Positions 39,090-64,000 of a DNA stretch of 64,000 nt are shown piece by piece. The notes under the pieces were generated by a model that did no database searches, was not told the DNA's origin, and saw only the letters and a list, made by a program, of their open reading frames with translations. Position numbers and translations under genes: made by a program. The stretch comes from Malacoraja senta (lineage: Eukaryota): NCBI GenBank assembly GCA_038087875.1, contig CM075991.1:4898001-4962000 (forward strand). The letters are read 5' to 3'. Within the stretch, counting starts at the first letter, position 1. Each line of letters begins with the position of its first letter.

Positions 39090-39289
39090 NNNNNNNNNNN
39101 NNNNNNNNNNNNNNNNNNNNNNNNNNNNNNNNNNNNNNNNNNNNNNNNNNNNNNNNNNNNNNNNNNNNNNNNNNNNNNNNNNNNNNNNNNNNNNNNNNNN
39201 NNNNNNNNNNNNNNNNNNNNNNNNNNNNNNNNNNNNNNNNNNNNNNNNNNNNNNNNNNNNNNNNNNNNNNNNNNNNNNNNNNNNNNNNN
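39090..39289. other. Assembly gap (200 N)
   Basis: Run of exactly 200 N, a round number typical of scaffolding joins of unknown size. Confidence 0.99.
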
Positions 39290-45087: not shown

Positions 45088-45317
45088 CCCCCTCTCGCCC
45101 CCTCTCTCCCTTCTTTCCATCGAGCCCCCCCCACCCCCCTGCTCCCCACACCCCTGCTCACCCGAGCATATTCAACCCTGATCGTGTTGCGATCACATCT
45201 CTGTCTCCCTACCCCCCCCCCCCCCCAACTCTCTCTCCCGACTCCCCCTTCAGCCTTGAGATGCCAGTTCCGTGATCGGGATCACATCCTGTGAGCTAAA
45301 GGGAGATGATTACTTAC

Positions 45318-47159
45318 GGGTCACGGCAAAATATAACCAAAGAGCGAACACATGCACTTCCAGCAATTGGAGCTATTCCAATGTTCCCCGATTCATGAGA
45401 CGTCCCGTCGTGTGTGTCAAAGCAGACGCCCCTAGCTGTTGGTGACAAACACAGCGGGAGGTTAATGTCCCGTCAGGGAGTGCAGTGGCCCTCGGGGGTA
45501 GCGGGGCCGTGGTGATACGTCAATACTAACTCTCCCTGGAAATGAGCCATTCAGACCATTGGGAAGAGCGTGTGCATTGACCAGGATCCAGCATTTGGCT
45601 GCACGGCACCGTTTCAGCCGGGTTCGGGCATCAGCACCCTCCCCAACGCCCTGTTACTCATCTCAGAGGCCCAACTGCGAAATTGATGTCCAGAACTCAA
45701 TGCACATCTGTTTAAATAAAATTCAATGTATTCAGCTATTTAAGGAATTATTTAGGCATGGAACTATAAGAAACACCCACCGCCATAATATCAGACTGTC
45801 AATGATCGCAAACAAATATCAAATCACTATGTTACGATTCAAGAGACAGTCGGGCCCTCGCGACGGCCAGCCGTCCTGGGATCACCTCCCGGATGTCAAT
45901 GGACACTATGTGTTCTTTTTCAAAGGACAAACTGGCGCCAACATAAACTCGGGAAAGAAGCGGGCAGTCGGCTAGTGTGGAGCCCTCGTCTGCCGCAAAT
46001 GGCCAGGTTTGGCCAGGCGCAAGGTTTGATAGACACAAGTCATCCTCTGATCTCCCCCCCCCCGCACAGGGTGCACACAGATTAGTACGGTGGTTCTGAA
46101 GTGGAGCTAGAAAGCAAGGAGTAGCCCATACAAGTAGCTCACTCCATAAATTGTGTCGGAGGAAACTTCAGATACTGGTTTGCACCGAAGATTGACAAAA
46201 TGCTGGAGTAAACACTGCGGGTCTGAAGAAATGTCTGGGACCCGAAACGTCACCTATTCCTTTTCTCCAGAGGCTGCCTGAACCGACAAGTTACCCAGCA
46301 TTTTGTGTCTGTCACTCCATAATTGTGCACGTTTCGCAGTTCCCCCTTGATTACAGTGTGAACCCTGACCCACTGTGATCCCCAATACCCATCCGGGCTG
46401 TGGTGCCGGGAACAGTTACGGGTTTGAGAGGAACTCCTGGGGGCACTTTCACCATTTTCGGGCAAAACGCGTCTCGCGGCCAATGAAGAGCTGGTGAGGT
46501 GTCGCCATTGTTGTCGGGAAGCGGGACTTCCATTGGTGCACGGCATGATCCCACACAGCCCAGTGATTGGCTTCTGATGACCAGGTCCATCAACAGCTGT
46601 TGAGGACAAACACTGGTCAGTGTAAAGGGGCAGCGGTACTTAATTCTAATGAGATCCTTCAATCCACCTGTGAACAAAGTTTAGTGCCTCAGCTGAAGTG
46701 CGGCAGAGGAGCGCACCCTCAACTGAGGATTAGTCCGGGGCATCAACCTCCACTACTATCAGACTCCTACCGCCCGCGGAACCAAGTGTGACGAGCTTTA
46801 GCGTCGCGCCTTGAGTGTGATGTCCTGCTCAGTCCCTGTGTCGGCCGAGTCTCACTGCCGGATCAGAGTGAGATTCATATCGATAGATTACCGCTTGTGT
46901 GCTGTGCCGTAATGAAGCAGGCGGCTTCCAACCGCTGAGCGGCGAGAAGCAGCAGAGCGATGCACAGTTGGTGTTTCTGCACAGAGAGAGCGAGAGATGG
47001 ACAGCTTGGTGACCGTCGTGGTCAAGTAACTAACATTGCACCCTGCCCCTGTCACTGTCACCTCGGAAGGCGGCTGTGCAACGAATCGAAGCTGCGTTGT
47101 GTTGTTCATTGAACAACCCAAGAACAGTCGGATGCACAAACCTGATCCGTACATACCAT
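45318..47159 (-). pseudogene. MSMB: MSMB-like copy A: exon 1 (47157-47159), exon 2 (46892-46976), exon 3 (45318-45435); exon 4 not visible
   Basis: ATG|GTATGT; exon 2 KHQLCIALLLLAAQRLEAACFITAQHTS with intact splice sites. Exon 3 has a -1 and a +1 indel relative to paralogs. Intron 3 is occupied by Tx1 elements that run into the assembly gap. Confidence 0.75.
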
Positions 47160-48355
47160 GATCTCCGAACCAGACACTTCTCTTCAGTGTCTGAGCGGAC
47201 AATCTCTGCCCCGCTGGCACCGCCTGCAGACTTCATTCTCCGCTCTCGAGAACCTGCTTTTGACCCTTGCTGATGCTGCCTGCGTTTTATCCATTCAGAA
47301 AAGAGGTGGAGTTTCGCTGGTGCCGCCTTTCACTTCACCGGTCTTTCAACCAGCGTATCATCCTTAAAGTCATGGAGCACCGAAATTGACCATGCCTCTC
47401 AAACTGCGCCATCTCCGCTAGTCCCACCCACAAGTGCTTAGCCCATGTCCGTGTAAACCTTTCTATTCCATGAACCCGTCCAAATGCCTTTGAATGCTAC
47501 TGTGAGAACTTGTCTCACTGCTCTCCAACTTGGGAAACAGGCTCTACGCCTAAACTGCCCCCTCACCAACATGTCCCATCTACACTAGTCCTACTTACCG
47601 GCGTTTGGCCCATATCCATCTAAACCTATCCTGTCCGTGTACCTGTCTAATTGCTTCTTAAACGTTGCGATAGTCTGTGCTTCAACTACCTCCTCCGGCA
47701 GCTCGTTCTATGCACCCACCTCCATGTGTGTGTCAAAGGTTATGCCCCAGATTCCTATCATATCTATCCCTCTTCACCTTAAAACGGTGCCCTTTTAACT
47801 GTTTCTCCATTTCCATGATCTTAATATCCACCAGGTCTATATGTCTGATGGTTTTATACACTTCCCTAGAAGCCTTTGAATTTTACTTGCACGTACTCCA
47901 ACTTACATTTCCTCGCACACTCGAGTTCCCAAACACGCCACAGCGTTTTCCTAGAACCTTCCATTTCTCCAGCCAATTTCTTATTGAAATGATGGGTTAG
48001 ATGGAACCAATAACAGGTTTAGTAGCACCACTGGGCCTCATTCCCCATTTTCAAGCTAAACGTATCAAAGCCTTCAAATTTAATTATTTTCAGGTTAATT
48101 TACATATTCCATAGATGTATTCTCTTTACAACCTACATTTTGTTCAATTTAAATGTTCTCAATCATTGAAGTTCCCAGAGCCTCCTCCATCTCACGCCCC
48201 CTTTCGTATTGAATGATGGGTCAGAAGACGACGGCAGAACATGTTTGGTAAATATTTATTGTGATGCAAGAGTCATTACATTACATTCCATGCAAGAGTC
48301 AAGGCTCGTTGATGTATGTCTCCACATTTGAAGGAGTTGTCTGGTTTATTCCAGC

Positions 48356-48485
48356 TCATTTCCCAACAAGTATATCCACTTGACACTCGGCAGACGGGTC
48401 GTTCTTCCTTATGGCATGAAACGAACAAGTCCTAATATCGAAAGTTAACATACATTCGCTCGAGTAACCAGATGGCATGGCATAC
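48356..48485 (-). CDS. MSMB: MSMB-like copy B exon 4 (terminal)
   Basis: ttccctAG acceptor; (R)YAMPSGYSSECMLTFDIRTCSFHAIRKNDPSAECQVDILVGK-TGA. Splice phases 0/1/2 join all four exons into a 110-aa ORF with 10 mature-region cysteines. AATAAA at 48345-48350 and 48255-48260. Confidence 0.93.
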
Positions 48486-48799
48486 CTAGGGAACAGATCA
48501 AGGACCAATGATAAACAATTGGAAAGATCTGCCTCGCTGCGCTAGGAAAGCGGATTGGATCCTGACCTCAGGTCCAGACTGTGGAGTTTCCATGTTCTCC
48601 CTGTGACTGCGTGGGTTTTTTTTAATGGATGCTCTAATTTCCTCCCATACCCCATATATTTGCGTGTCAGGAGTTAACTGACGCTGCAACGTGCCCTGAG
48701 CGTGCAGGTGGAGACTAATATTAGGTCCAACACTAAGATCGATGCGGGGAGGATAAAACAGAATTAATTCATGGTCGATCTCTCTCTCTCTCTCTCTCT

Positions 48800-49315
48800 T
48801 TTTTCCTTTCCAAAGACGTTATTCAGCAACTGCATACTGCAGTGGACCAAAACGTACATAAACGTTCAATGATTACAATACATCAAACAGTCATTATAAT
48901 GCAATGGTGCCAATCAATATTGACAATGCTCTCGACTCCCCGCGGCGACCACCGTTCACGGAAGGCCTCAAGAGTCCCCGTGGACACCGCGTGTTCCCTT
49001 TCCAGTGACACGCGAGCACGGACATAGGCCCGGAAGTGGTGCAGGCAGCCGACTCTGTGGTGACCATCGACCGCTCGCTGCCTGGACCCACGAATGGCCA
49101 TTTTGGCCAGGCCAAGGAGCAAACAGACAGGGAGACCCCCCCATCCATCGGCCCTCCCACTCCCCGCCCTATGCCCAAACACCAGGATCATGGGACCTAA
49201 ATGCAACCAGAACTTGAGGAGGCAGCCCTTCAGATATTTGTACAGGGGCAGCAACCTCACGCACTCCGTATACATGTGGGGCAGCAACCTCACGCACTCC
49301 GTATACATGTGAGCA
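48800..49315 (-). mobile_element. 5'-truncated Tx1 3' end in intron 3 of MSMB-like copy B
   Basis: HMYTECVRLLPLYKYLKGCLLKFWLHLGPMILVFGH...LLLGLAKMAIRGSRQRAV...RARVSLEREHAVSTGTLEAFRERW. The 3' end abuts (TC)n at 48779-48798. A 33-bp tandem duplication lies at 49245-49310. Confidence 0.85.
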
Positions 49316-49501
49316 CGATATCTACATACCCGCATAAAATATAGGCCTGACTACTCCTTCTCCGGAAGGGAGTGGGGGCCATCAAGGATACATTTACCCT
49401 TATGAGGCACCGCGGGCTACAAAGTGCGGTCTGAGTCCAAATGCCCGCAGAATCTCCATCAGGTAGTCGTGATCCACCACTAAAAGTGAATGATTACTTA
49501 C

Positions 49502-49616
49502 CGCTCGCAGCAGTCATAACCTTGGCGCGAACACAAGCAATCCCAGCAGTTGGTCACCCAACTTTCTCCGTATGGATGATACGTCCCGTCGGTTAGATCA
49601 TGGCACATGCCCGCAA
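49502..49616 (-). CDS. MSMB: MSMB-like copy B exon 3
   Basis: cAG acceptor; 115 nt encoding (V)AGMCHDLTDGTYHPYGESWVTNCWDCLCSRQGYDCCE(R); GTAAGT donor. Shows the PSP94 pattern C-x-D-..-H..G..W...C..C.C......CC. Confidence 0.93.
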
Positions 49617-49722
49617 CTGTTGATGACCAAGACAGCGGTGGTCAGTGACCGTCGGTTAGTGGAGTGACCGAGGGAGTGGCAGAGGAGCCCTACTAGGGAA
49701 TTGATGTTCAGAGCTCAACCCA

Positions 49723-50899
<1,177 letters not shown>

Positions 50900-50908
<9 letters not shown>

Positions 50909-52560
50909 ACATAGCTAAAAACTGCCATCTGCTCTTCCGGTTTGCGTTGTGTTTACATTTGTGCAAAAATGGTACCCAATAGCGTTATGATATTTCGCCA
51001 CCCTACTCGCCATTTCCTGTGCTACAAACGCAAAAAGTTGTGTTCCGACTGGTGGAAGATTACAAAAGGTTTTAAGGTTTAAATTCGTTAAAAAAAACTC
51101 GCATGCGCCGATTGGTCTCCTTTTCTGTCGGCAGATTGGTCTTCACTCCTGCATATCGCCGGGACGGCGATGTCCCTTGTGGCGCCCGCTGTTACTCACC
51201 GGCGGCGAGGTGAAAAAAGTTGAAGGAGCAGAATAAGTTGCGTTTGGCGAGCGGCTGGGGCTGCGTATGCGGCGACCACCACTATGAGCCGGGAGCCGTT
51301 GAGTGGGGCCAGAAACCGCTGAGGCAGGGAGCTGCTGAGTGAGGCCAGGAGTCGTTGAGTGAGGCCAGGAACCGCTGAGTGAGGCCGCGAGGTGGCTATG
51401 AGTGAGGCCGCGAGCCTCTGACTGAGGCCGGGAGCCGTTGAGTGAGGCTGGCGCCGTAGAGTGAGGCTGGAGCCGGGGCCGGGGCCGGCGCCGGGATCTG
51501 ATGAGTGCAGCCGGCGCCGGGGCCAAGAGCCGCAGATTGAAGGCGGGAGCTGATGATTGAGACCGGGGCCGGGAGCTGCTGATTGAGGCCGGAGCCATGG
51601 CCGGGAACTGCTTAGTGAGGCCGGGGCCAAGGACGGGAGCGGATGAGTGCGGCCAGAGCCCCTCACCCTGCCCTCATGTCCTCCCACACCCCCCCTCCCC
51701 CCACACACCCACTCCGCACCCACACCACCCTCACCCACCGGCCCCCGACAGCTCCCGCTGAAGCCGTCCCCCTCCCCCGGCTGCAGAACGCCCCACCCCA
51801 CAGGCCCGCCATCCCCCTCGCCCGGCCGCAGGGCGCACCCCCACCGCCGCTCAACAGCCCGCCTGAAGCCGCCCCCTCTGCAGGATGCTCCCCACTGGGC
51901 CCCGCCTGAAACCGATGGGGAGCGGCAGCGGTAGGCGACGACAGCGATATGCCACAGCTGCGGTAGTGATAGGCAGCGGCAGCGGTAGGCCACGACAGCG
52001 ATAGGCAGCGGCAGGCCACGACAGCGATAGGCAACGGCAGTGGCAGGCCATGGCAGTGGCAGGTGTAGGCAGGAAGCGGTAGGAAGTGGCAGCAATAGGC
52101 CACGACAGCGCTCCCCATCGGCCCCCGGCAGGCACCGCCGGAAGCCACCCCCTCTCCCAGCTGCAGGACGCCCCTCCCTCCCCCACCAGCCCCGGACACC
52201 CCCTGCCTGAAGCCACCCCCCTACCCCGGCTGCAGAACGCAACAAGAGACGACTGAATGAATTTCATCTTTAACGTTTACTTTGATGTTATATTTTAAGT
52301 TGTTCACACTTTAAGCTTTAATCAATCCCCTTTACACTAGCCGTGCCCGTCAGCTGCGCATGTGCTGTAATACCTGCGTGGTTTACGTCACAATGGGCGG
52401 GAATGACTGCGCAGCCGGAGGGCCGCTAAGAGTGGATGGGGGTGGGGGGGGGGTGAGGGGGGATTGAGTGAGTGTCCGGGGGTGGAGGGCAAGGGCGGTG
52501 TGGCTGGGGCGGGGGGGGGGGGGGGTGAGGGGCGTCACAACGGGAACCCGTCAGCCGCGC
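50900..52560 (+). mobile_element. GC-rich insertion with internal minisatellites, possibly a non-autonomous Helitron-like element
   Basis: Absent from the homologous intron of copy A. Begins TCTATATACATAGCTAAAA. Internal tandem units of about 20 bp (gagtgaggccgggagccgtt, 51290-51630) and about 30 bp (ggcagcggcagcggtaggccacgacagcgata, 51920-52110). The family assignment is weak. Confidence 0.45.
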
Positions 52561-53589
52561 CTGTATTCTCCTAATTTATGCATGAAACTATTAAATAAAG
52601 CCTTACCGCCTTAACATCAGACTATAAACTATCACTGCCCAAATACCAAATTACTATGTTACAATCATGAAACAGGAGACAGCCCTGGCGGTCCTGGAAC
52701 GCCTCCACGGTGCTAGTGGGCACTGCGTGTTCTTTTTCAAGGGACGACAGTCGGGCTCGGGCGTAAGCTCGCCAAAGGGGCGGTCAGTCGGCTCTACTGA
52801 AGCCCTCGTCTGCCTGCACTGACCTACCCACTCTCCTCCTCTGCCGAAAAATAAGGATGGTGGGATTGAATTAGAGCCAGAAAGCAAGGAGCAGCCCAAT
52901 CAAATAGCTCGCTCCGTGATTATGTAGGAAGAAAATGCAGATGCTGCTTTCCGCAGAAGATTGACACAAAATCCTGGAGTAACTGTACGGCTCAGGTCTG
53001 AAGAAGGGTCTCGACCCCAACCATCATCTGTTTCTTTTCTCCAGACATGCTGGCTGAACAGCTGAGTTACTCCAGCATTTTGTGTCTATCACTCCCTAAT
53101 TTTCGCCGTGCCCGTGGTTACAGTGGCCCTGACCCACTGGGACCGCAATACTCATCCAGGCTGTGGGTGCCGGGACCACTGGACGAACTCCTGGCGTAAT
53201 TTCCCAATTTTCAGGCAAAACCCATCTCGCGGCCAATGAGGAGCTGGTGAGATGTCGCCATTGTTGGCGGGACCGTGGCTTCCATTGGTGCACGGCATGA
53301 TCCCACACAGCCCGGTGATTGGCCTCTGGTGGACCAGGTCCATCAACAGCAGTTGAGGGACACATATTGGTCAGTGTAAAGGGGCAGCTGCACCAAGTGC
53401 GACGAGGAGCGCTCACTCAGCCGAGGATGGTCGGGGCATCAGCCTCCACTATCCTCAGACTCCAGCCCTACCGAGGCACAGGCGGGGCGCCAAGGGGTGA
53501 CGAGCTTTAGCGAAGCCATGAGTAAAATGTACTGCTCAGTCGGAGTCTCACTGCCGGATCTGAGAGTGAGATTCACGTCGATATCATAC

Positions 53590-53674
53590 CGCTTGTGTCT
53601 TGTTGCCGAAAGGTGCAGGAGGATTCCGACAGCGGAGCAGCGAGAAGCAGCAGGGCGATGCACAGTAGTAGTTT
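53590..53674 (-). CDS. MSMB: MSMB-like copy B exon 2 (signal peptide and first Cys)
   Basis: ctccctccgcAG acceptor; 85 nt encoding KLLLCIALLLLAAPLSESSCTFRQQDTS plus 1 nt; GTATGA donor. Confidence 0.9.
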
Positions 53675-53853
53675 CTGCGGAGGGAGGGAGGGAGAGAGAA
53701 ATAGATTGTTGAGCGACGTGGTCAAGTAAATAAAACTGCAATCACATCCGTCACTACCACCTCAGAGGCGGCTTTGCGGCGACTCAAAGCTGCGCTGGGA
53801 AGTTTACTGAACACCCAGCATCAGTCAGTTGCACAAAGGCGATCCGTACTTAC

Positions 53854-53856
53854 CAT
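53854..53856 (-). CDS. MSMB: MSMB-like gene copy B (intact), coding part of exon 1 (ATG only)
   Basis: Minus strand reads gagatcATG|GTAAGT. An ATG-only first coding exon is the known MSMB architecture, and the same arrangement is present in copy A. Confidence 0.85.
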
Positions 53857-53984
53857 GATCTCCGAACCAGACCGCTTCTCCCCAGTCTCTGAGTGGACAA
53901 CCTGCGTCCCCGCCAGCACCGCCTGCAGACTTAACTCTCCGCTCTAGAGAATCTGCGTTTCAACCTTGGCTTTTGCCGGCTGTG

Positions 53985-54050
53985 GGCTATTTATTCAGAA
54001 AAGAGGTGGAGTTCCGCTTGTCTCGCCTTTCATTTCACCGGTCTTTCACC
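53985..54050 (-). promoter_or_regulatory. Putative core promoter of MSMB-like copy B (TATA-like AATAAATAG)
   Basis: AT-rich box about 135 nt upstream of the ATG. The flanking block (cagaaaagaggtggagtt...ttcaccggtctttca) is conserved upstream of copy A at about 47285-47350. Confidence 0.45.
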
Positions 54051-54060
54051 CCCCCCCCCC

Positions 54061-54389
<329 letters not shown>

Positions 54390-54396
<7 letters not shown>

Positions 54397-55575
54397 TTGC
54401 AGAATAATCCCAAACTCGGGGGTGATGTTTGGCAAATTTGTAAAAAGAACACAATGTAACTGAGAGCAACTCAGCTGGCCAGAAGGCACCATAGGAGAAC
54501 ATAGGAGACTTCAACTCGATCGGAGTTGGTGGGCACAGACTGGGAGCGACCGGAGATGCGGTCACTCAGACGATGGGCCCCAACCTGAGTGTGATGTGTG
54601 ACGGCCCCAAGTTGCTTATCCATATTCTCCCAGAGATGTGGCCTGACCCAATTGTCTGAAAGGCCTGTGTGACTCTATGGTTTGCTTCGACTGCACTTAG
54701 AACTTCTCCCATGCAACCTCTTCCCTCACTCTCCCTGTTGCAATCACAGCAGAGGAGAGATACCGGGCGCCAGGGCCCGTCAACTGTGCCCGACAATTGC
54801 CAACCCATTGCCAACAAACACGGCTCATACCCTCGCATCGGCGACGCCCCCTTGAGCCATGCGGTGCCATTTCACCCGTAGGGGTCAGATCCTGTGACCT
54901 AAATGCTAATCCTACGATGACTTACCTTTCGCAATAGCTTGACGAGGCATCACACGCCCTCGTCTGCCTGCCGGAATGGCCAGGTTAGCCAGGCCCAGTA
55001 GCAACCCAACTAGATCCAGCTCTGACCTACCCATTCTCCTCCGCACTTGGTGCCAAGCAATATGGATGGTGTGATTCAATTGGGGCCAGAAAGCAAGGAG
55101 CAGCCCATTCAAAGAACTCGCTCCGTAATTGTGTAGGAAGAAATTGCAGATCCTGGTTTACACCGAAGATTGGCACAAAATGCTGGAGTAACTCAGCGAG
55201 TCAGGTCTGAAGAGGGGTCTCGACCCGGAAACGTCACCTGTTCCTTTTCTCCAGACTTGCTCCCTGAACAGCTGAATTACTCGAGCATTTTGTGTCTATC
55301 ACTCCATAATTGGACAGGTTTCGCCGTATTCCCTGGTTACAATGTGAACCCCTGAGCCACTGGGACCCGCAATACTCATCCAGGCTGTGGGTGCCGGGAC
55401 CATTTACTGGTTTGGGAGAAACTCCTGGCGCAATTTCCCAATTTGCAGGCAAAACCCCTCCCGCGGCCAATGAAGAACTGGTGAGGTGTCGCCATTTTTG
55501 TCGGGAACTGTGGCTTCCATTGGGTGCACGACATGACCCCACACAGCCCGGTGATTGGCCTCTGATGATCAGGTC
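54390..55575 (-). pseudogene. MSMB-like fragment F: part of intron 3, 3' stub of exon 3 (about 54926-54940) and part of intron 2
   Basis: 54390-54590 and 54870-54925 match intron 3 of copy C (63210-63449). ...TATTGCGAAAG|GTAAGT is the exon-3 end. The rest of exon 3 is deleted and joined to intron-2 sequence. Confidence 0.7.
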
Positions 55576-56539
55576 CCGACGAGAGGGCCTACACATCGGG
55601 CCGTCCGTAGCGGCGACTACGGAGGGTCAAGGCCCCAACACGGGTGGACAAAAAGGAGGAAGACTGATTAAACTTTATTGCCTTCCATCACAGTGGATGT
55701 TTATGTTCAGTGCTATCGTGTATTATGTTCTTTTAATTGTACGGTCTGCATGGTAACTCAAATATCACTGTACCGTAATAGGTGCATGTGACATAAATGT
55801 AACAAATAAGACACGTCGCCACCTATTAATCCCACCTCTCGTTTCATCCCCCGTGTATACACAGTTTATACTGCGCAGCGTCCGCTTTTTTTTCCCGAAT
55901 GATCATTGACAAATCCAATGATTCCTTGCGTATATCGGAATACCGAACTGGCTGATTCTCGTCCCAACTGACGAGCCTGCTCATTTCGTCACCCTCCCCG
56001 CTTGACCCCTGGCATCTTTCGCTGCAAATTTAGAGAGTGCGACACCACACCTACTTCCTCATCAACGTTCAGGGTCCTAAACAGCTCCACTGAGGCGATG
56101 CCAAGGAGCACGTGCATCTCCCCGGCGTGGCGTATTCGTTCATCGAGCATTGACCAATACTACTCAGGATCAGGCTTGAAGAGAATGGATCCTGCGAGAA
56201 GCAGCAAGGGGAGGGGATGGGAAGACGAGGTTGGTGGTGAGATGGCCTTGGAACTGGCAGATGTGTAGAACGATACAGCACATGAATCTAGGAATGCAGG
56301 TACACAGTTCCCTGAGAGTGTCGTCAAAGGTGGATAGTTAAAAGTCAAATGGATCTTCGAAATATTGGCCTTTTTCACAGGGTATTGAGTGTAGAGATTA
56401 GGATGTTATGTTGCAGTACTGCAACACTTGGGTGGGACCGCGTTTTGAGAATTGTGTCATCATTTGTTCATAGGTAGGATGTCATGAAACTTGAAAAATA
56501 GCAGAAAAAAATATTAAAAGGTTGACAGCACACGAGGGC

Positions 56540-56776
56540 CCGACCCATAGGAGACCTCTCACGACCATACAGGCGACCCTTGGCGACATGTCGCGGGTGA
56601 CCTCTCACGACCATACTCATGTAAGGTCGTGAGATATATGCTATGGTCGTGAGAGGTTTTCAAAGGGTCGTAGCGTCTTCTGGTCGCCGCTGAATTTTCA
56701 ACATGTGGAAAATGTCGGCGACCTATCACGGGTGCCGGCAGTCGCCTGTAAAGGTCGCATAAGTGTGACTGGCCCT
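56540..56776. mobile_element. MITE fragment of the same TIR family at the left boundary of inverted copy D
   Basis: Ends aagtgtgactggccct|tta; gtcg/cgac-rich interior. Confidence 0.55.
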
Positions 56777-56779
56777 TTA

Positions 56780-59700
56780 GGTACATGATCACGTTGCCGA
56801 TGAAACTTTCTCTCTCCCCCTCCCTCTGTGTGTGCAGATACTCCCACTGTGCATCGCTCTGCTGCTTGTCGGGGCTCAGCTGTCGGAATCCGCCTGCTTC
56901 TTTCGGAAACAGGACAGGAGCGGTAACGTATAGTCGTGAATGAATCTCTCTGTCAGATCCGGCAGCGAGATATAGAATCATCGAACATTGAAAATAGGTG
57001 CAGGAGTAGGCCATTCGGCTGTTCGAGCCCAAATTGGCTAATCATCCAAAATTAGTACCATATCCCCTGATTCATTTAACTAAATCTAACTCTCTCTTGA
57101 AAACATCCAGTGAATTGGCCTCCACTGCCTTCTGTGGCAGAGACTCGGTCGACAGCAGGAGCAGGGATTGAGCAGGACATCATATTCATGGCGCCACCCT
57201 AACGCTCATCGCCGTTGGCTCCCCGCCTGTTCCTCGGTGGGTTTGAAGTCTGAGTGTAGTGGGGGTTGATAGCCCGACCAATCCCCAGCTTAGGGAGCGC
57301 TCATCTGTCACATTTCAGCTGAGGCACTAAACCTTGTCCACGGGTGGATTGAGGGTCATAAGGTCATAAGTGATAGGAGCAGAAATAGACCGTTCGGCCC
57401 ATCAAGTCTACTACGCCATTCATTCAAGCCTGATCTATCTCCCTCCGAACCCCATTCTCCTGCCTTCTCCCCGCAATCCCTGACACCCGTACTAATCAAG
57501 AATCTATCTATCTCTGCCGTTAACATATCCTTTGACTTGGCCACGGCCTTCTGTGGCAAAGAATTCCACAGCTTCACCACCCTCTGACTAAAGAAATTCC
57601 TCCTCATCTCCTTCCTAAAGGAACGCCCTTTAATTCTGGGTCTATGACATCCAGTCCTGGACTCTCCCACTTATGGAAACATCCTCTCCACATCCACTCT
57701 ATTCACGTTTTTCACTATTCTGTACATTTCAATGAGGTTCCCCTCACACTCCAGCGAGTACGGGCCCTGTGCCGTCAAGCGTTCATCATATGTTAACCCA
57801 CTCATTCCTGGAATCATTCTTGTAAACCTCCTCTGGACCCTCTCCAGAGCTTACACATCCTTCCTCAGATATGGTGCCCAAAATTGCTCACAATACTCCA
57901 AATGTGGTTTGACCTGTTCCTTACAGAGCCTCAGCATTATATTCCTGTTTTTGTATTATAGCCCTCTTGAAATTAATGCTAGCATTGCGTTTGCTTTATT
58001 TACTACCAATTCGATTTGCAGGGTAACAATTTGATAATCCTGCACCAGATCTCTCAAGTCCCTTTGAACCTCCGATTCCTGGATTATTTCCCCATTTAGA
58101 AAATAGTCTACGCCTTTATTTCTACTCCCAAAATGCACGACTCCATACCGTATTCCACTATATTCCACCCGCCACTTCTCTGCCCACTCTCCCAACCTGT
58201 CCAAGTCCTTCTCCAGAGTTCCTGCTTTCTCTACATGACCTGTCCCTCCACTTATTTTCGTATCACCGGCAAATGTGGCCACAAAGCCTTCAACCCACTC
58301 ATCCAAATCATTAATATATAATGTGAAGAGTAGCGGCGCCAGCACCGACCCCTGCGAAACTCCGCTAGTCACTGGCAGCATACCAGAAATAACCCCCATT
58401 TACTGCCATTTTTTGCCACCAGCCATCCAGCCAACCTCCTATCCGGGTTAGCATCTGCTCTTTCACACCATGGGCTTCCATGTTCCTTAGCAGCCTCACG
58501 TGTGGCCCCTTATCAAAGGCTTTCTAAAAATCGAGGTGAACAACGTCCACCGATTCTCCTTCGCCTGTCCTGCTATTGACTTCTTCAAAGAATTCCAGCA
58601 GATTCGTCAGGCAAGACCTCCCTTTCACAAAATCATGCTGACATCCGTCTATTTTATCGTGAACTTTGAAATACACCGTAACCTCATCCTTTAAAATGCA
58701 CTCTAAAATCTTACCAACCACCGAAGTCAGACTAATCGGCCTATAGTTCCCACTATTCTACTTTGCTCTCTTCTTCTGCAGCGGGGTAATATTGATAATT
58801 TTTCAATCATCTGGAACCATTCCTGACTCTTGTGATTCTTGAAGTATCACTATTAATGCCCCAACAATCCCTGAAGCCACCTCTTTCAGAACGCGCGGTT
58901 GCAGTCCATCGATCCAGGTGACTTATCCTCTTTCAGCCCTTTCAGCTTTCCAAGCACCTTCTCCTTAGTAATCGCGACTCCACTAACTTCCACCCCCTGA
59001 TTCTCTTAAATTTAAGGCACGTTGATGGTGTATTCCCCTGTGAAGACTGACGAAAATCAAAATACTCAACTCCTCTGCCAATTCTTTATTCACCTATTAT
59101 CACTTGTCCTGCATTATTTTCCAGCGGTCCAACGTACACTCTTACCTCTTTCTTGCTCTTCATATAACGGGAGAAACTCTTGCTATCCTCTTTTAGATTA
59201 ATAGCTTGCTTAACTCTTGATATCCTCTTTGATATTACTCGCTATCTTATTTCATCTTTTCTCCCGTATTGCTTTTTAGTTACATTCTGTTGCTTTAAAA
59301 GCTTCCCAGTCCTCTGGCATGCCACTAATTTTTGCAATGTTATATGCCTTCTCTTTTAGTGTTATACTGTCCTTGACTTCCCTTGCAGGCCACTGTCGCA
59401 TCATTCTCCCCCTAGAAACGTTCTTCTTCTTTGCAATTAAAAGATCCTACATCCTCCGACTAATTCCCAGAAATTCTTGCCACTGCTGTTCCTCCAGCAT
59501 CCCTGCTAGGGTCATTTTCCAGTCAACGTTGGCCAGCTCCTCCCTCATGCCTCTGTACTGACCTTTGCAATGCCGACATACGATTTCACCTTCTCCGTCA
59601 CAAATTGCAGGTTAAACCTTATCATATTTTGGTCGTCACCTCCTAGTGGTTCCTTTACCACGAGTCCCCTTATCAAATCCGGTTCATTACACAACACTAA

Positions 59701-61136
59701 ATCCAGAATTGCATTTTCCCTGGAGGGGTGCACCACAAACCGATCTAAGAATCCATCTCGTTAGCACTCTACAAACTTCTCTTTCTTGGAGTCCAGTGCC
59801 AATCTGATTTTCCCAATCAACCTGCATATTGAAATCGCCCATGACCACCGCAGCATTGCCTTTCTTACAGGCAGATTGTACCTCCTGATGTAACGATATC
59901 CTAGCTACTGTCTGGGGGGCTGTAAATAACTCCCATGAGGGTCTTTATACACTTACGATTTTCAGCTCTATCAACAGTGACACTACATCCTCTGATCCTA
60001 TGTCACCCCTCGCTAAAGACTGCATTTTATTCCTTACCACCAAATCTACCCCTCCCCCTTTGCCCACCTGTCTCTCTTTCCGATAGGACGTGGATCCTTC
60101 AATAGAAATTGAGGATCTGCTCAGAATTAATTGCTGCTGCCCCTGTACACTGACAAATATTTCACCCTCAACTGCTATTGATGGACCTGGTCTTCAGAGG
60201 CCAATCACTCGGATGTGTGGGATCATGCCGTGCCCCCAATGGAGGCCACGCTTCCCTACAACAATGGCGGCACCTCACCAGCTCTTCACTAGCCACGAGA
60301 CGAGTTTTGCCTCAGAATGGGGAAAGTGACCCAGGAGTTCCTCCCAAACCAGTAGCACTCACAGCCTGGATGAGTATTTGGGATCCCAGTGTGCCAGGGG
60401 TTCACACTGTAACCAGGGGCAACGACGAAACCGACCCATGTATGGATTGATGCACACGAAATGCTGGAGTAACTCAGCGGTTCCGACAGCATCTCTGGAG
60501 AAAAAGAATAGGCGACGTTTCGTGCCGAGACTCCTCTTCAGACCTGATCCGCTAACTGACAGAGATACCCCAACATTTTGTGTCAATCTTCGGTGTAAAC
60601 CAGGATCTGCAGTTTCTTCAGACATAATTATGGAGTGAGCTATTTGAATGGGCTGCTCCTTGATTTATGGCTCCGCTTCCGTCCCACCATCATAATCTGT
60701 GTGTACCAAGTGCGGAGGGGAGTGGGTAGATGAGAGGAGGATCAGATTGGTTTGCTGCTGGGCCATTATTGCGTCAAGGCGCCAAGCAGACGAGGGTTCC
60801 ACATCCTCGCCCGACTGTCCCTTGAAAAAGAACACGCAGTGCCCACTGGCACAAGGGAGGTGTTCCAGGACCGATGGCCGCAGCGATGGAATTGACTGTC
60901 TCCTGGATCAAGAATGTAGCATAGCAATTTGGCATTTGCTTGCGATCTTTGACAGTCTGATGGTGGTGGGTGTTTTGGTCAATGCATAAACAATTCTGTA
61001 AGTTGCTGAATATATTCAATTTTATTTTAAATATATATATAGAGTGAGCGCTGACCACCAATTCCCCAGTTGGGCTTCCGAGATGAGTGAAGTTGGGTGT
61101 TGGGTTGGGGGGCTGGTATCAGATCCCGGGTGAAAC
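56780..61136 (+). pseudogene. Inverted MSMB-like copy D: intact-looking exon 2 (56838-56922) plus intron 2; exons 1, 3 and 4 not found
   Basis: tgtgtgcAG|ILPLCIALLLVGAQLSESACFFRKQDRS plus 1 nt|GTAACG. 60090-61136 is the reverse complement of intron 2 of copies A/B/C and stops short of exon 3. Confidence 0.75.
57356..60090 (-). mobile_element. Degenerate CR1 LINE (ORF2 to 3' tail) inside intron 2 of MSMB-like copy D
   Basis: ENAILDLVLCNEPDLI, QHDFVKGRSCLTNLLEFFE, VTSGVSQGSVLAP, ESRTGCH..RIKGRSFRKEMRRNFFSQRVV. Octamer tail (catAAGGT)n at 57356-57372. Confidence 0.93.
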
Positions 61137-61189
61137 ATAGAGAATAGGCGGAGGAGTAGGCCATTCGGCCCTTCGAGCCAGCACCGCCC

Positions 61190-61378
61190 ATTCCTTATGG
61201 AAATGATAGGTCAGAAGACGACGGCAGAATGTTGGGTATATGTTTATTGTGAAATGAACTTTACATGCAAGAGCTAAGGCTCCTGCATCCCATTGTTGAA
61301 TGCCTCTAAATTGGAAGGGAGCTGTCTGTTTATTCCAGCTCATTTCCCAACAACTCAATGCACTGGGTATTCGACAGA
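61190..61378 (-). pseudogene. MSMB-like fragment E: 3' end of exon 4 and 3' UTR
   Basis: Matches 48200-48395 and 62600-62795. Reads VEYPVH*VVGK*, with the last Cys lost and a premature stop. Confidence 0.7.
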
Positions 61379-62757
61379 TTATCTCTTGAATAATTCTGAC
61401 CTGTGTAACTGTCTGCGTGGAGAGTGCAATTTCCCGCCACGGCGTGATTACACCGTGTGCTCTGGTTACAAGGGCCTGCAAATTTGTGATGAACTTGCCA
61501 TTGCAGTAGGTCATGAGTATTCATGGGAGTGGTGGGAACTATCGGGAATGTGTGGAGAATTTTTTTTAAGTCTGGAGTAACTCCGCGGGCCAAACAGCAT
61601 TTCTGGACAACACCGACTTGTAACATTTCGAGTCGGTTGCTGTCGGTAGGCCCGTCGTGGGATGCGATCACTCTGAAAACGGATTCCAAGCCAAATAGTA
61701 GCTTGCACATGATCAACAGGGATGCAGAATGGCGAACTGCGTTACTCCCGTCCTTCGTGTCTTGTGGTAGTGGTAAACCACCATCTACAGTTCCATGTGT
61801 GGACATGTTAGGATAATCATCTGCGTCAGGGTAGGATGTTCTCCATGTTCTCCGCAGATGCGGCCTGACCCAGTGGACAATAGGGCCTGTGTTCGTGCCG
61901 TATGACTCTATGGTTTGCTGCGACTGTACTTTATGGTTCCCTGTGCCGAAAGTGAGCATGCATCTCAAAATCACCCATCTACTGGAAGTGTTTAGCCCAT
62001 GTTTGTCAAACCAGCTTGCTCATATACCTCTAAACCAATCCTATACATGTACATGTCTATGATTTCTTAAGTGTTGCATTAGTTCCCCTTCTGGCTGCTT
62101 GTTCCATACACCCATCGCCCTTTGTGTGAAACGGTTATCCCCAAGGTTCCGACTGAATCCTTCTCCCTTCACCTTGAACCCATGTCCTCGGGATCTCCAT
62201 TCCGCCACTCTACGCAAGAGAATTCGTGCGTCGACCCTCTTATGATTGTATACACCTTTGTAAGATCACCCCTTCCTGCGTTCCAATGAATCAACTCCCA
62301 GCCTGCTCAATCACTCCCTATTAAATTAAATTTCATCAACCATTCCTCAGCCCAACTTCCATTTTCTCACACACTCGTTCGCGAACGCACCACGCCATTT
62401 CCCAGTGCCTTCCCTTTCTCCAGCCCATTTCTTCAATGGTTTGTGAGGGGTCACTAGGCCTCGTACCCCACGTTCAGGCAAAACGCATCAATTCCTTAGG
62501 ATTTATCACTTTGCATATTCAGTGACATTTCATAGTAATATGTTCTTACAAATTACACTTCGTTCAATTTACATTTTCTCAAAAACACTTGTATCTCACG
62601 CCCATTTCTTATTAAAATGATGGGTCAGACGATGACAGCAGAATAGGTTTGTTATATATTTATTGTGGGCTGGAGTCGTTACATTATATTCAAGAGTCAA
62701 GTCTCCTGTATCCCATTGATGAATGTCTCCGCGTTGGAGCTGCCTGTTTATTCCAGC

Positions 62758-63567
62758 TCATTACCCAATAGCTGCACCCACTGAACATTCGACAGCCGGG
62801 TCATTCTTCATAAAGACTTGAACAAGTTTTAATTTGGAAAATTAACATTCATTCAGCTGGGACACCAATTGGTACGAAATACCCGGGGAACAGATCAGGG
62901 AATCAATGATGAACAATTTGGAAGATATGCCTCACAGCGCCAGGGACGCGGGTTCGATCCTGACCTCGGCTCATGTCTGTGTGGAGTTTTTTTACGTTCT
63001 CCCTGTGACTGCCTGGGTTATTTTTAGGGATGCTCAAATTTCCTCCCACGTCCCAGAAACTTGCGGATCGGGAGGTTAAATAACGCTGTTACTTGTCCCG
63101 AGCGTGCAGGTGGAGAATAATATCTAGGTCCTGCCCTGAGATCCAACCATAATGCGGGGTGAATAATGGAGGATTAATGCATGGCCGTAGTTAACGGGGA
63201 TTTATCGTCTCTCTCTCCTTGTGGAATAATCCTAACCTCGGAGCATTTTTTTTCATGGACACAGTACTGAAGCAACTTTGCGGCCAGGCAGAACCCCTGG
63301 ACTTTTTGAGTCGGTCGCAGTCAATGAACCCGGACTGGGAGCGCTGGAGATGCGGTCACTCGAACGACGAGTCCCAACCTGAGAACACGCTTAGCCTGTT
63401 CACCCGTCGGGGTCAGATCCTGTGAGCTAAACGGCGGATGATTACCTACCGTTCGCAGCATTCATAACCCGCGCGCGCACACACGCACTCCCAGCAGTTG
63501 GTGTTCATCCAACTTTCTCCGAATTGATGAGACGTTCCGTCGTTTGTGTCAAAGCACGTGCCACTAA
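62758..63567 (-). pseudogene. MSMB: MSMB-like copy C: intact exon 3 (63450-63567), disabled exon 4 (62758-62882); exons 1-2 would lie beyond the window end
   Basis: Exon 3 SGTCFDTNDGTSHQFGESWMNTNCWECVCARAGYECCER with good splice sites. Exon 4 has its acceptor AG changed to GG, a Cys codon changed to TGA (62849-62851), and a 4-nt deletion relative to copy B. Confidence 0.8.
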
Positions 63568-64000
63568 CTGTTGGTGATAAAGACAGCAGGGGGTCAGTGT
63601 TCCGGTGGGGATTGGAGAGACCCGAGGGAGTGGCGGGGCACTGGCGTTGACTCAATACAAAAACACCCTGGAAATGAGCCATTCAGACCACTGGGACCGT
63701 TCCCGTGTGTACTGACCCGGACCTCGCACTTGGCTGCACGGTAGACACAAAATGCTGGAGTAGGTCAGCGGGACAGGCAGCATCTCTGGAGAGAAGGAAT
63801 GGGTGACGTTTCGGGTGGAGACCCTTCTTCATACTTGGCTGTACGGTCCCGTTTCACCCGGGTTCCGATAACAGCGCCCGACCCAAGACCCAGCATCACT
63901 GATCTCGGGGACCTAACAGGGGAATTGGTGGTCAGCGTTCACTCCATATGTTTTAAACTAAAAAGAAACGTACCCAGCTATTTTCCGAAGTATTTATGCA

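Follow-up and report, generated by a model that had tools for sequence, protein, structure and literature searches.

What are the short, repeatedly duplicated exons found between 44 and 64 kb of a 64-kb window of the Malacoraja senta genome, and what might their products do? Unprefixed coordinates below are positions in this window, the whole stretch analyzed, and C15 denotes the 14.3-Mb contig that carries it. A preliminary description had proposed a birth-and-death cluster of beta-microseminoprotein (MSMB, or PSP94) genes made up of six paralogous segments. The window is probably better understood as one block of a PSP94-family expansion on C15, likely of the USM/USMH/SSP branch, whose products would be diversifying protein-binding defence factors. 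Self-comparison of the window revealed paralogous exon and intron segments of 70–82% identity within 44–64 kb. Exon profiles scored up to 69 bits there, as compared to at most 13.9 bits in 20 block shuffles and at most 12.1 bits in 1–39 kb, a chance control that is circular for copy B, which the profiles include. The paralogy of the segments was thereby borne out, but not their number; since C and E are one gene, there are five exon-bearing units (A, B, F, D, and C/E) and one intron-only remnant. The cluster continues past the window end, as had been suggested, to C15:4,974,400, and the proposed exon sizes of 3–130 nt were also recovered. No other gene was found in 1–39 kb by Pfam scans of 54 window open reading frames (ORFs) and 140 of 547 flank ORFs, which short exons would escape.

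Family membership rests on profile, structural, and gene-layout evidence. The best Pfam family for exons 3 and 4 of copy B and exon 3 of gene C was PF05825 (E-values of 0.013, 0.0068, and 0.0023), with the two B exons covering model positions 18–50 and 54–91. Each exon alone scores below the 22-bit PF05825 cut-off, and three of the four exons tested match, the signal exon being the one that does not. All five full-length skate relatives exceeded this cut-off (41–47 bits), spliced B being scored exon by exon. A PF05825 search of the M. senta genome returned none of 37 candidates at E ≤ 0.001 because the exons score separately. Relaxing the threshold to E ≤ 10 gave 23 matches, including a weak one on C1; those on C2 were judged by eye to be VWC-type repeats, and that on C4246 yielded no exon on follow-up. 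A C1 candidate from a separate search was noise. When B exon 4 was compared with the PDB, only microseminoproteins were matched (5/5). A predicted model of a little-skate relative (predicted local distance difference test score, 86.7) matched only MSMB/SSP structures at E < 0.001 (6rwc, 3ix0, 2iz3, 6imf_B, and 1xhh; 5 of at least 500 matches), consistent with the two-domain beta-sheet fold of the PSP94 family, as judged on this relative rather than on B. Ten conserved cysteines in the mature chain are a feature of that family (PMC8167871). Genes of the MSMB/USM type, as opposed to MSMP, have four coding exons, with the ATG forming the last three bases of exon 1 (PMC3268785), and the same layout, including an exon 1 whose coding part is the ATG only, is present here.

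As the preliminary description had it, copy B alone is complete in the window, the remaining units being broken. This minus-strand gene has coding exons of 3, 85, 115, and 130 nt, GT-AG introns, and a 110-amino-acid product, with the following features:

53854–53856, minus strand: exon 1 coding part (ATG), 3 nt
53590–53674, minus strand: exon 2, 85 nt, predicted signal peptide and first cysteine
49617–53589, minus strand: intron 2, 3973 nt, with a microsatellite, a GC-rich insert, and the putative chimeric junction
49502–49616, minus strand: exon 3, 115 nt, N-terminal domain, six cysteines
48356–48485, minus strand: exon 4, 130 nt, C-terminal domain, three cysteines, stop
48255–48260, minus strand: candidate polyadenylation signal AATAAA, 96 nt past the stop

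A second AATAAA lies 6 nt past the stop. The protein contains ten mature cysteines (positions 21–102) and a hydrophobic N terminus (core mean of 3.25 over residues 3–14), with no later membrane segment, and is thus predicted to be small and secreted, the N terminus serving as signal peptide. B occupies the place held by a d/e-type gene in other blocks, and its exon 2 is 92–93% identical to that type. In contrast, exon 4 is 96% and 92% identical to orphan exons of another paralogue type, and exon 3 has no match better than 80%. This pattern suggests that B is a chimera, with exons 1 and 2 from one paralogue type and exons 3 and 4 from another, which may have arisen by fusion or conversion with a junction early in intron 2. 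That intron is 689–1849 nt long in 10 of 11 other genes measured, as compared to 3973 nt in B. Between 49700 and 52560, it holds a TATC/TCCA/TCTG microsatellite complex of 1.2 kb and a GC-rich insert of 1.6 kb with 16–23-nt internal repeats, neither of which has a counterpart in the other blocks. None of the RefSeq skate relatives is a one-to-one partner of B (best, 67/110 residues, with only exon 2 close at 26/28), and exon 4 as sole query found no database relative. Contigs of a related organism, compared with 45150–49690, aligned there in short and divergent stretches alone and carry no weight here.

Searches of the same genome located further copies on C15 at 3.76–3.81, 5.63, and 5.98–6.08 Mb, giving three segmentally duplicated blocks and one orphan (5.63 Mb) spread over 2.3 Mb. 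Iterative profiles over 664 kb around the copies detected 25 exon-3 and 22 exon-4 copies, to which searches with protein profiles contributed two further, divergent exon 3s and one more exon 4, for totals of at least 27 and at least 23. With 27 exon-3 copies on the chromosome, six segments understated the scale of the family. Twelve four-exon models were translated, 11 of which reach a normal stop; the other stops six codons early, at the same place as a Rhinoraja protein. The splice site at exon 2 is non-standard in two of the 12, and ten mature cysteines are present in 11, with nine in the remaining one. Ten genes on C15 are intact and canonical with four exons, nine of them with all ten cysteines, while two copies lacking exon 4 lie beside a gap and may or may not be intact. 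The intact genes are predicted to encode secreted, 10-kDa, disulfide-rich proteins. Mature proteins are 33–90% identical to one another (median 46%), with isoelectric points of 4.2–8.4. The 3.76–3.81 and 5.98–6.08 Mb blocks are mirror-image duplicates (∼90%), and the window block is 83–95% identical to both in its best stretches; therefore, the paralogue types came first, entire blocks of several genes were then duplicated, and each block subsequently lost different genes. Birth-and-death turnover, as first proposed, is supported by these observations. New copies would arise by tandem and segmental duplication and by unequal exchange between neighbours, as in B, and would die by deletion, retrotransposon insertion, and point mutation.

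Several further features accompany the blocks. At their outer edges (C15:3.813–3.814 and 6.072–6.078 Mb) lie two far more divergent PSP94-family genes with open exons 3 and 4. Three further exon-4 copies follow one gene at C15:6000540–6002877 (minus strand), two of which keep the AG acceptor and AATAAA, and one of these two is open-framed with an extra Cys-Cys pair. Exon-2 remnants stand just 3′ of several exon 4s in the same orientation (four short matches, e.g., C15:3770174–3770232), which suggests old head-to-tail fusions. At least three SRCR-domain exons (CD163/DMBT1-like) are present at C15:3.730–3.739 Mb on the plus strand, ∼25 kb from the 3.76-Mb block.

Relatives of the C15 genes in other skates indicate the age of the expansion. 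Nine distinct RefSeq cluster representatives were identified from Leucoraja erinacea and Rhinoraja longicauda, where they sit on single contigs (15.6 and 19.8 Mb) under the names “beta-microseminoprotein-like” and “prostate-associated microseminoprotein-like”; the latter (MSMP) does not fit the four-exon structure found here. An unrooted tree of 46 rows, none a named MSMB, was built from 12 models of this genome and 34 of 61 fetched relatives, with fragments, fusions, isoforms, and two divergent C15 genes left out. Skate rows grouped together with one unnamed protein (support 95/83). The A, C, d/e, and l types each paired with other-skate proteins at starred support and b/i did so weakly (81/92), and one Rhinoraja protein is 80% identical to exon 3 of the G copy. 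Five subfamilies are thus common to this genome and the two other skates, and the expansion is therefore shared among skates, much of it predating these species, with turnover continuing. The proposed cartilaginous-fish affinity agrees with skate proteins being the closest relatives. Its independence holds in part, the expansion not being private to this genome, as does the suspected under-annotation, given that RefSeq already models relatives in both species. The R. longicauda RefSeq isoform X1 contains a repeat-derived stretch that matches more than 100 places in 370 kb of C14 and is likely a spurious exon or an exonised short interspersed element.

Pooled ratios of nonsynonymous to synonymous substitution (dN/dS, omega) were 0.52 for the signal peptide versus 1.02 for the mature part (66 pairs). 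Site models were fitted per exon to 20 of the 27 exon 3s and 14 of the 23 exon 4s, after exclusion of copies that were frameshifted, interrupted by stops, fragmentary, duplicated, or very divergent. Twice the log-likelihood difference was 32.7 (exon 3) and 28.4 (exon 4) for M2a versus M1a and 30.5 and 27.8 for M8 versus M8a, with omega near 3 on about 41–58% of sites, as compared to maxima of 7.8 and 9.4 in null simulations (12 per exon). Amino-acid changes are in excess at non-cysteine sites, while the cysteines and tryptophan are nearly invariant. Codon models thus show a signature of what appears to be diversifying selection on both mature-domain exons. Constant cysteines combined with rapid change at the remaining positions would suit a group of binding proteins that differ in their targets, and on balance, each paralogue may bind a different extracellular partner, for instance a CAP/CRISP protein, a protease, or a microbial surface, while keeping the same beta-sheet scaffold. 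By analogy with relatives, the likely site of action is serum or secretions of the mucosal and reproductive kind. CRISP3 is a ligand of MSMB, which also shows antifungal and antibacterial activity (PMC8167871, PMC9363672); SSPs bind triflin, metalloproteases, and PLA2 (PMC7150969); and a zebrafish family member marks macrophage-like cells (PMC11505477).

These analogies lead us to favour, if without great confidence, a defensive over a reproductive role. The reproductive explanation is nevertheless a substantial possibility: the genes would encode egg-capsule, jelly, or seminal-fluid proteins, diversified through sperm, egg-coat, or CRISP interactions. Skates lay encapsulated eggs, and positive selection is equally compatible with this role. 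In marsupials, USM forms part of the egg coat, and the expressed sequence tags (ESTs) of zebrafish usmh derive largely from the reproductive tract (PMC3268785); chicken MSMB3 is oviduct-specific (PMC9363672). However, USMH is also expressed in non-reproductive tissues (PMC3268785), snake SSPs are serum proteins (PMC7150969), and the zebrafish member marks macrophage-like cells (PMC11505477), all of which argue against it.

Assignment to a branch of the family draws mainly on synteny. MSMB adjoins FAM21C and ANUBL1, near ARID5B, whereas USM/USMH adjoins ARID5A, and snake SSPs were grouped with USMH (PMC3268785). C15 carries NCAPH, SNRNP200, and ASH2L, 0.4–4.8 Mb from the blocks, and a beta-adrenergic receptor. 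We take NCAPH, SNRNP200, ASH2L, and ADRB3 to be markers of the ARID5A-bearing chromosome, NCAPH and SNRNP200 presumably being ARID5A neighbours, and NCOA4 to be linked to MSMB. The receptor is an intact single-exon ORF of 409 codons (C15:5055495–5056721, minus strand), expected from synteny to be of the beta-3 subtype. The MSMB neighbourhood (FAM21C/WASHC2, ANUBL1/ZFAND4, NPY4R, and ARID5B) does not surround the cluster; CAP-ZIP/WASHC2, zf-AN1 (ZFAND4), and ARA70 (NCOA4) matches lie at C14:4.05–4.83 Mb rather than on C15, with an anthrax-receptor-family gene also on C14. Neither a PSP94-family exon nor an NPY-type receptor was detected in C14:3.93–4.90 Mb (970 kb, 11 gaps), and NPY4R and ARID5B were not located. 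The exon-3 profile has snake SSP-2 as its best PDB match (E = 4.6e-7, versus 0.005 for MSMB), and of the seven named non-skate matches among ten looked up, five are from squamates and two from teleosts, with two of the seven bearing SSP-like names. Exon 3 measures 115–136 nt here, 127–130 nt in lizard USMH, and 103–110 nt in bird and opossum MSMB (PMC3268785). The cluster thus probably belongs to the USM/USMH/snake-SSP branch rather than to MSMB, and of the original designation “MSMB (PSP94) genes”, the PSP94-family part is supported by PF05825, while synteny favours a USM/USMH/SSP paralogue over MSMB in the strict sense.

Several points weigh against this interpretation of the locus. The defining USMH neighbour, ARID5A, was not located, and searches for KANSL3 and ELP3 likewise placed nothing on C15. 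The links of NCAPH/SNRNP200/ASH2L/ADRB3 to ARID5A and of NCOA4 to MSMB are presumed. A full-length skate protein ranks chicken and mammal MSMB above SSP-2, by sequence and by fold, and the skate genes do not join the squamate SSP/USMH clade in the unrooted tree; published trees of the family are unresolved as well (PMC3268785). The site models used our own code and fixed topologies, included exons of incomplete genes, and ignore gene conversion, the occurrence of which chimeric B shows. Finally, every block contains or adjoins a 200-N gap, with gaps at C15:3,790,123, 4,937,090, 4,966,839, 5,627,945, and 6,021,562, which makes the copy counts and their order uncertain, as well as the absence of exons from A and two other copies.

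Part of this evidence would be explained if the genes were true MSMB orthologues moved to C15, or if MSMB and USMH were inseparable in cartilaginous fish: the full-length ranking, exons 2 (85 nt) and 4 (130 nt) of the same size as in chicken MSMB3, and a C14 locus without detected MSMB, as a move would leave. We consider this unlikely, given four C15 markers presumed to belong to the ARID5A-bearing paralogon, in which an ancestral member of the family would be expected, and a long exon 3 resembling that of lizard USMH and not bird or opossum MSMB; moreover, losing one paralogue is simpler than losing one and moving the other into its place. Likewise improbable is a largely neutral turnover of copies, driven by an unstable region full of repeats, with few working genes and omega raised by gene conversion and relaxed constraint. 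In its favour, ∼17 of the 27 exon-3 copies lie outside any confirmed intact gene, the pooled mature omega is 1.02 with 31 of 66 pairs above 1, and chimeric B attests to exchange between copies. However, the per-exon site models reject neutrality far beyond the simulated nulls, the cysteines and tryptophan barely vary, and the five subfamilies persist in two other skates. Diversifying selection on a USM/USMH/SSP-type family thus remains the preferred explanation.

The broken copies in the window comprise the following features:

47157–47159, minus strand: copy A exon 1, ATG then GT donor
46892–46976, minus strand: copy A exon 2 (signal peptide), intact, 96% identical to exon 2 of two paralogues in other blocks
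45318–45435, minus strand: copy A exon 3, with two compensating 1-nt indels that garble its cysteine-rich central part, and with a change in one other Cys codon
39290–44372, minus strand: young, high-copy retrotransposon without long terminal repeats, near full-length, in intron 3 of copy A and ending at a gap
54956–55576, minus strand: intron-2-only remnant of a further copy, 78–82% identical to intron 2 of A and B
56838–61136, plus strand: copy F, an inverted fragment with exon 2 (56838–56922) intact and a repeat of 2.7 kb inserted into intron 2
61187–61378, minus strand: copy D, a 3′ piece of exon 4 and the 3′ untranslated region alone
62758–62882, minus strand: segment E, exon 4 of gene C, disrupted by a non-AG acceptor, an in-frame stop, and a deletion of 5 nt
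63450–63567, minus strand: gene C exon 3, intact
C15:4963397–4963481 and 4963664–4963666: gene C exons 2 and 1, past the window end

Both indels of copy A exon 3 fall within short homopolymers and are possibly sequencing errors. No exon 4 was found for copy A, and genome searches gave no extra A-type exon 4; intron 3 enters the young long interspersed element (LINE) and then an assembly gap (39090–39289), inside which exon 4 could lie. The retrotransposon has at least 40 copies genome-wide at 92–98% identity (40 of 332 candidates scored) and carries an endonuclease/reverse transcriptase-type ORF, read by eye. It adjoins a (TC)n run, a neighbour presumably reminiscent of microsatellite-targeting Tx1-type elements. 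Copy F was found without exon 1, 3, or 4. Exons 3 (C) and 4 (E) of gene C are separated by a 567-nt intron, and its exons 1–3 are intact, with 63 of 69 residues identical to little-skate XP_055518467.1.

It is very unlikely that misassembly, with haplotypes or contig-end overlaps placed apart, accounts for a large share of the copies. In favour of it, the blocks sit at gaps, the 5.63-Mb orphan recurs in C1302 at 99.8%, and the 6.0-Mb block holds a 9-kb tandem repeat at 98.6% identity. Against it, the A-type gene exists in three versions that are ∼9–14% apart, each block has unique flanks, and a seeming overlap of the window contig with the 3.79-Mb contig (5.1 kb shared) proved to be the young LINE, the other copy of which is only 93% identical, below many unlinked copies. 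The preliminary view that the divergence is real, not assembly duplication, is accordingly upheld, as blocks differ by ∼5–15% and some positions exist in three versions. C1302:1–28988, which matches C15:5630999–5660000, is probably an unpurged haplotig, and the reality of the 9-kb tandem repeat is doubtful. Elsewhere, segments at C14:4.72–4.79 Mb and C2:48.52/48.59 Mb appear duplicated ∼52 and ∼64 kb apart with identical translated matches, possibly as assembly or recent tandem duplications.

In other lineages, this family is well known to undergo tandem birth and death, and some skate copies are in RefSeq; what is new here is the size, the block duplications, the chimeric gene, the selection signal, and the USMH identity, which is likely. 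Literature searches yielded no paper on a PSP94-family expansion in chondrichthyans among the matches listed, which covered few subscription journals, and one little-skate EST is listed without subfamily name in PMC3268785. The pattern of snakes, lizards, opossum, and New World monkeys is extended to cartilaginous fish, and 27 exon-3 copies with ∼10 intact genes exceed the largest vertebrate count in the cited papers (14, opossum). If the synteny assignment holds, the USMH/SSP and MSMB branches had already parted by the time of the jawed-vertebrate ancestor, MSMB may have been lost in skates, and the RefSeq names given to the skate genes are misleading. It is conceivable, if rather improbable, that skates keep a modular SSP-like decoy repertoire instead of MSMB, with the N-terminal (exon 3) and C-terminal (exon 4) domains reshuffled between paralogues, as in B, and with orphan last exons that retain AG acceptors and AATAAA signals, such as the two behind one gene in the 6.0-Mb block, as alternative ends. 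Were this so, it would represent a combinatorial, positively selected defence against secreted parasite or prey effectors in a non-venomous vertebrate, and the snake anti-venom role would have grown from a defence function that is old among jawed vertebrates. Since skates are not known to be venomous, their positively selected paralogues provide a ready panel for ligand screens.

Among known systems, snake SSP-1 to -6 (PMC6609765, PMC7150969) and lizard and zebrafish USMH (PMC3268785) are likewise four-exon PSP94-family genes in a tandem array with inversion. Their arrays also share LINE insertions, fragmented pseudogenes, and accelerated evolution with the skate cluster and likely lie in the same paralogon. 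They differ in size, with 27 exon-3 copies in three blocks over 2.3 Mb in skate as compared to 5–6 SSP genes and seven lizard USMH genes. Sequence identity to SSP/USMH is low, and unlike for snake SSPs, we know of no venom system in skates to be neutralised. MSMB/PSP94 genes (human, chicken MSMB1–3, and opossum MSMB1–14) resemble the skate genes in PF05825 membership, ten cysteines in the same order, an ATG-only first exon, a 130-nt last exon, and the same predicted fold (template-modelling score of 0.60–0.64 by query length), and opossum MSMB has undergone a lineage-specific tandem expansion, as in skate. Unlike MSMB, the skate cluster lies off the WASHC2/ZFAND4/NCOA4 locus (C14) and has a longer exon 3. 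More distantly, a tandem expansion of 11 PSP94-domain genes in sea cucumber, linked to gut regeneration, represents an independent echinoderm event (PMC5638244).

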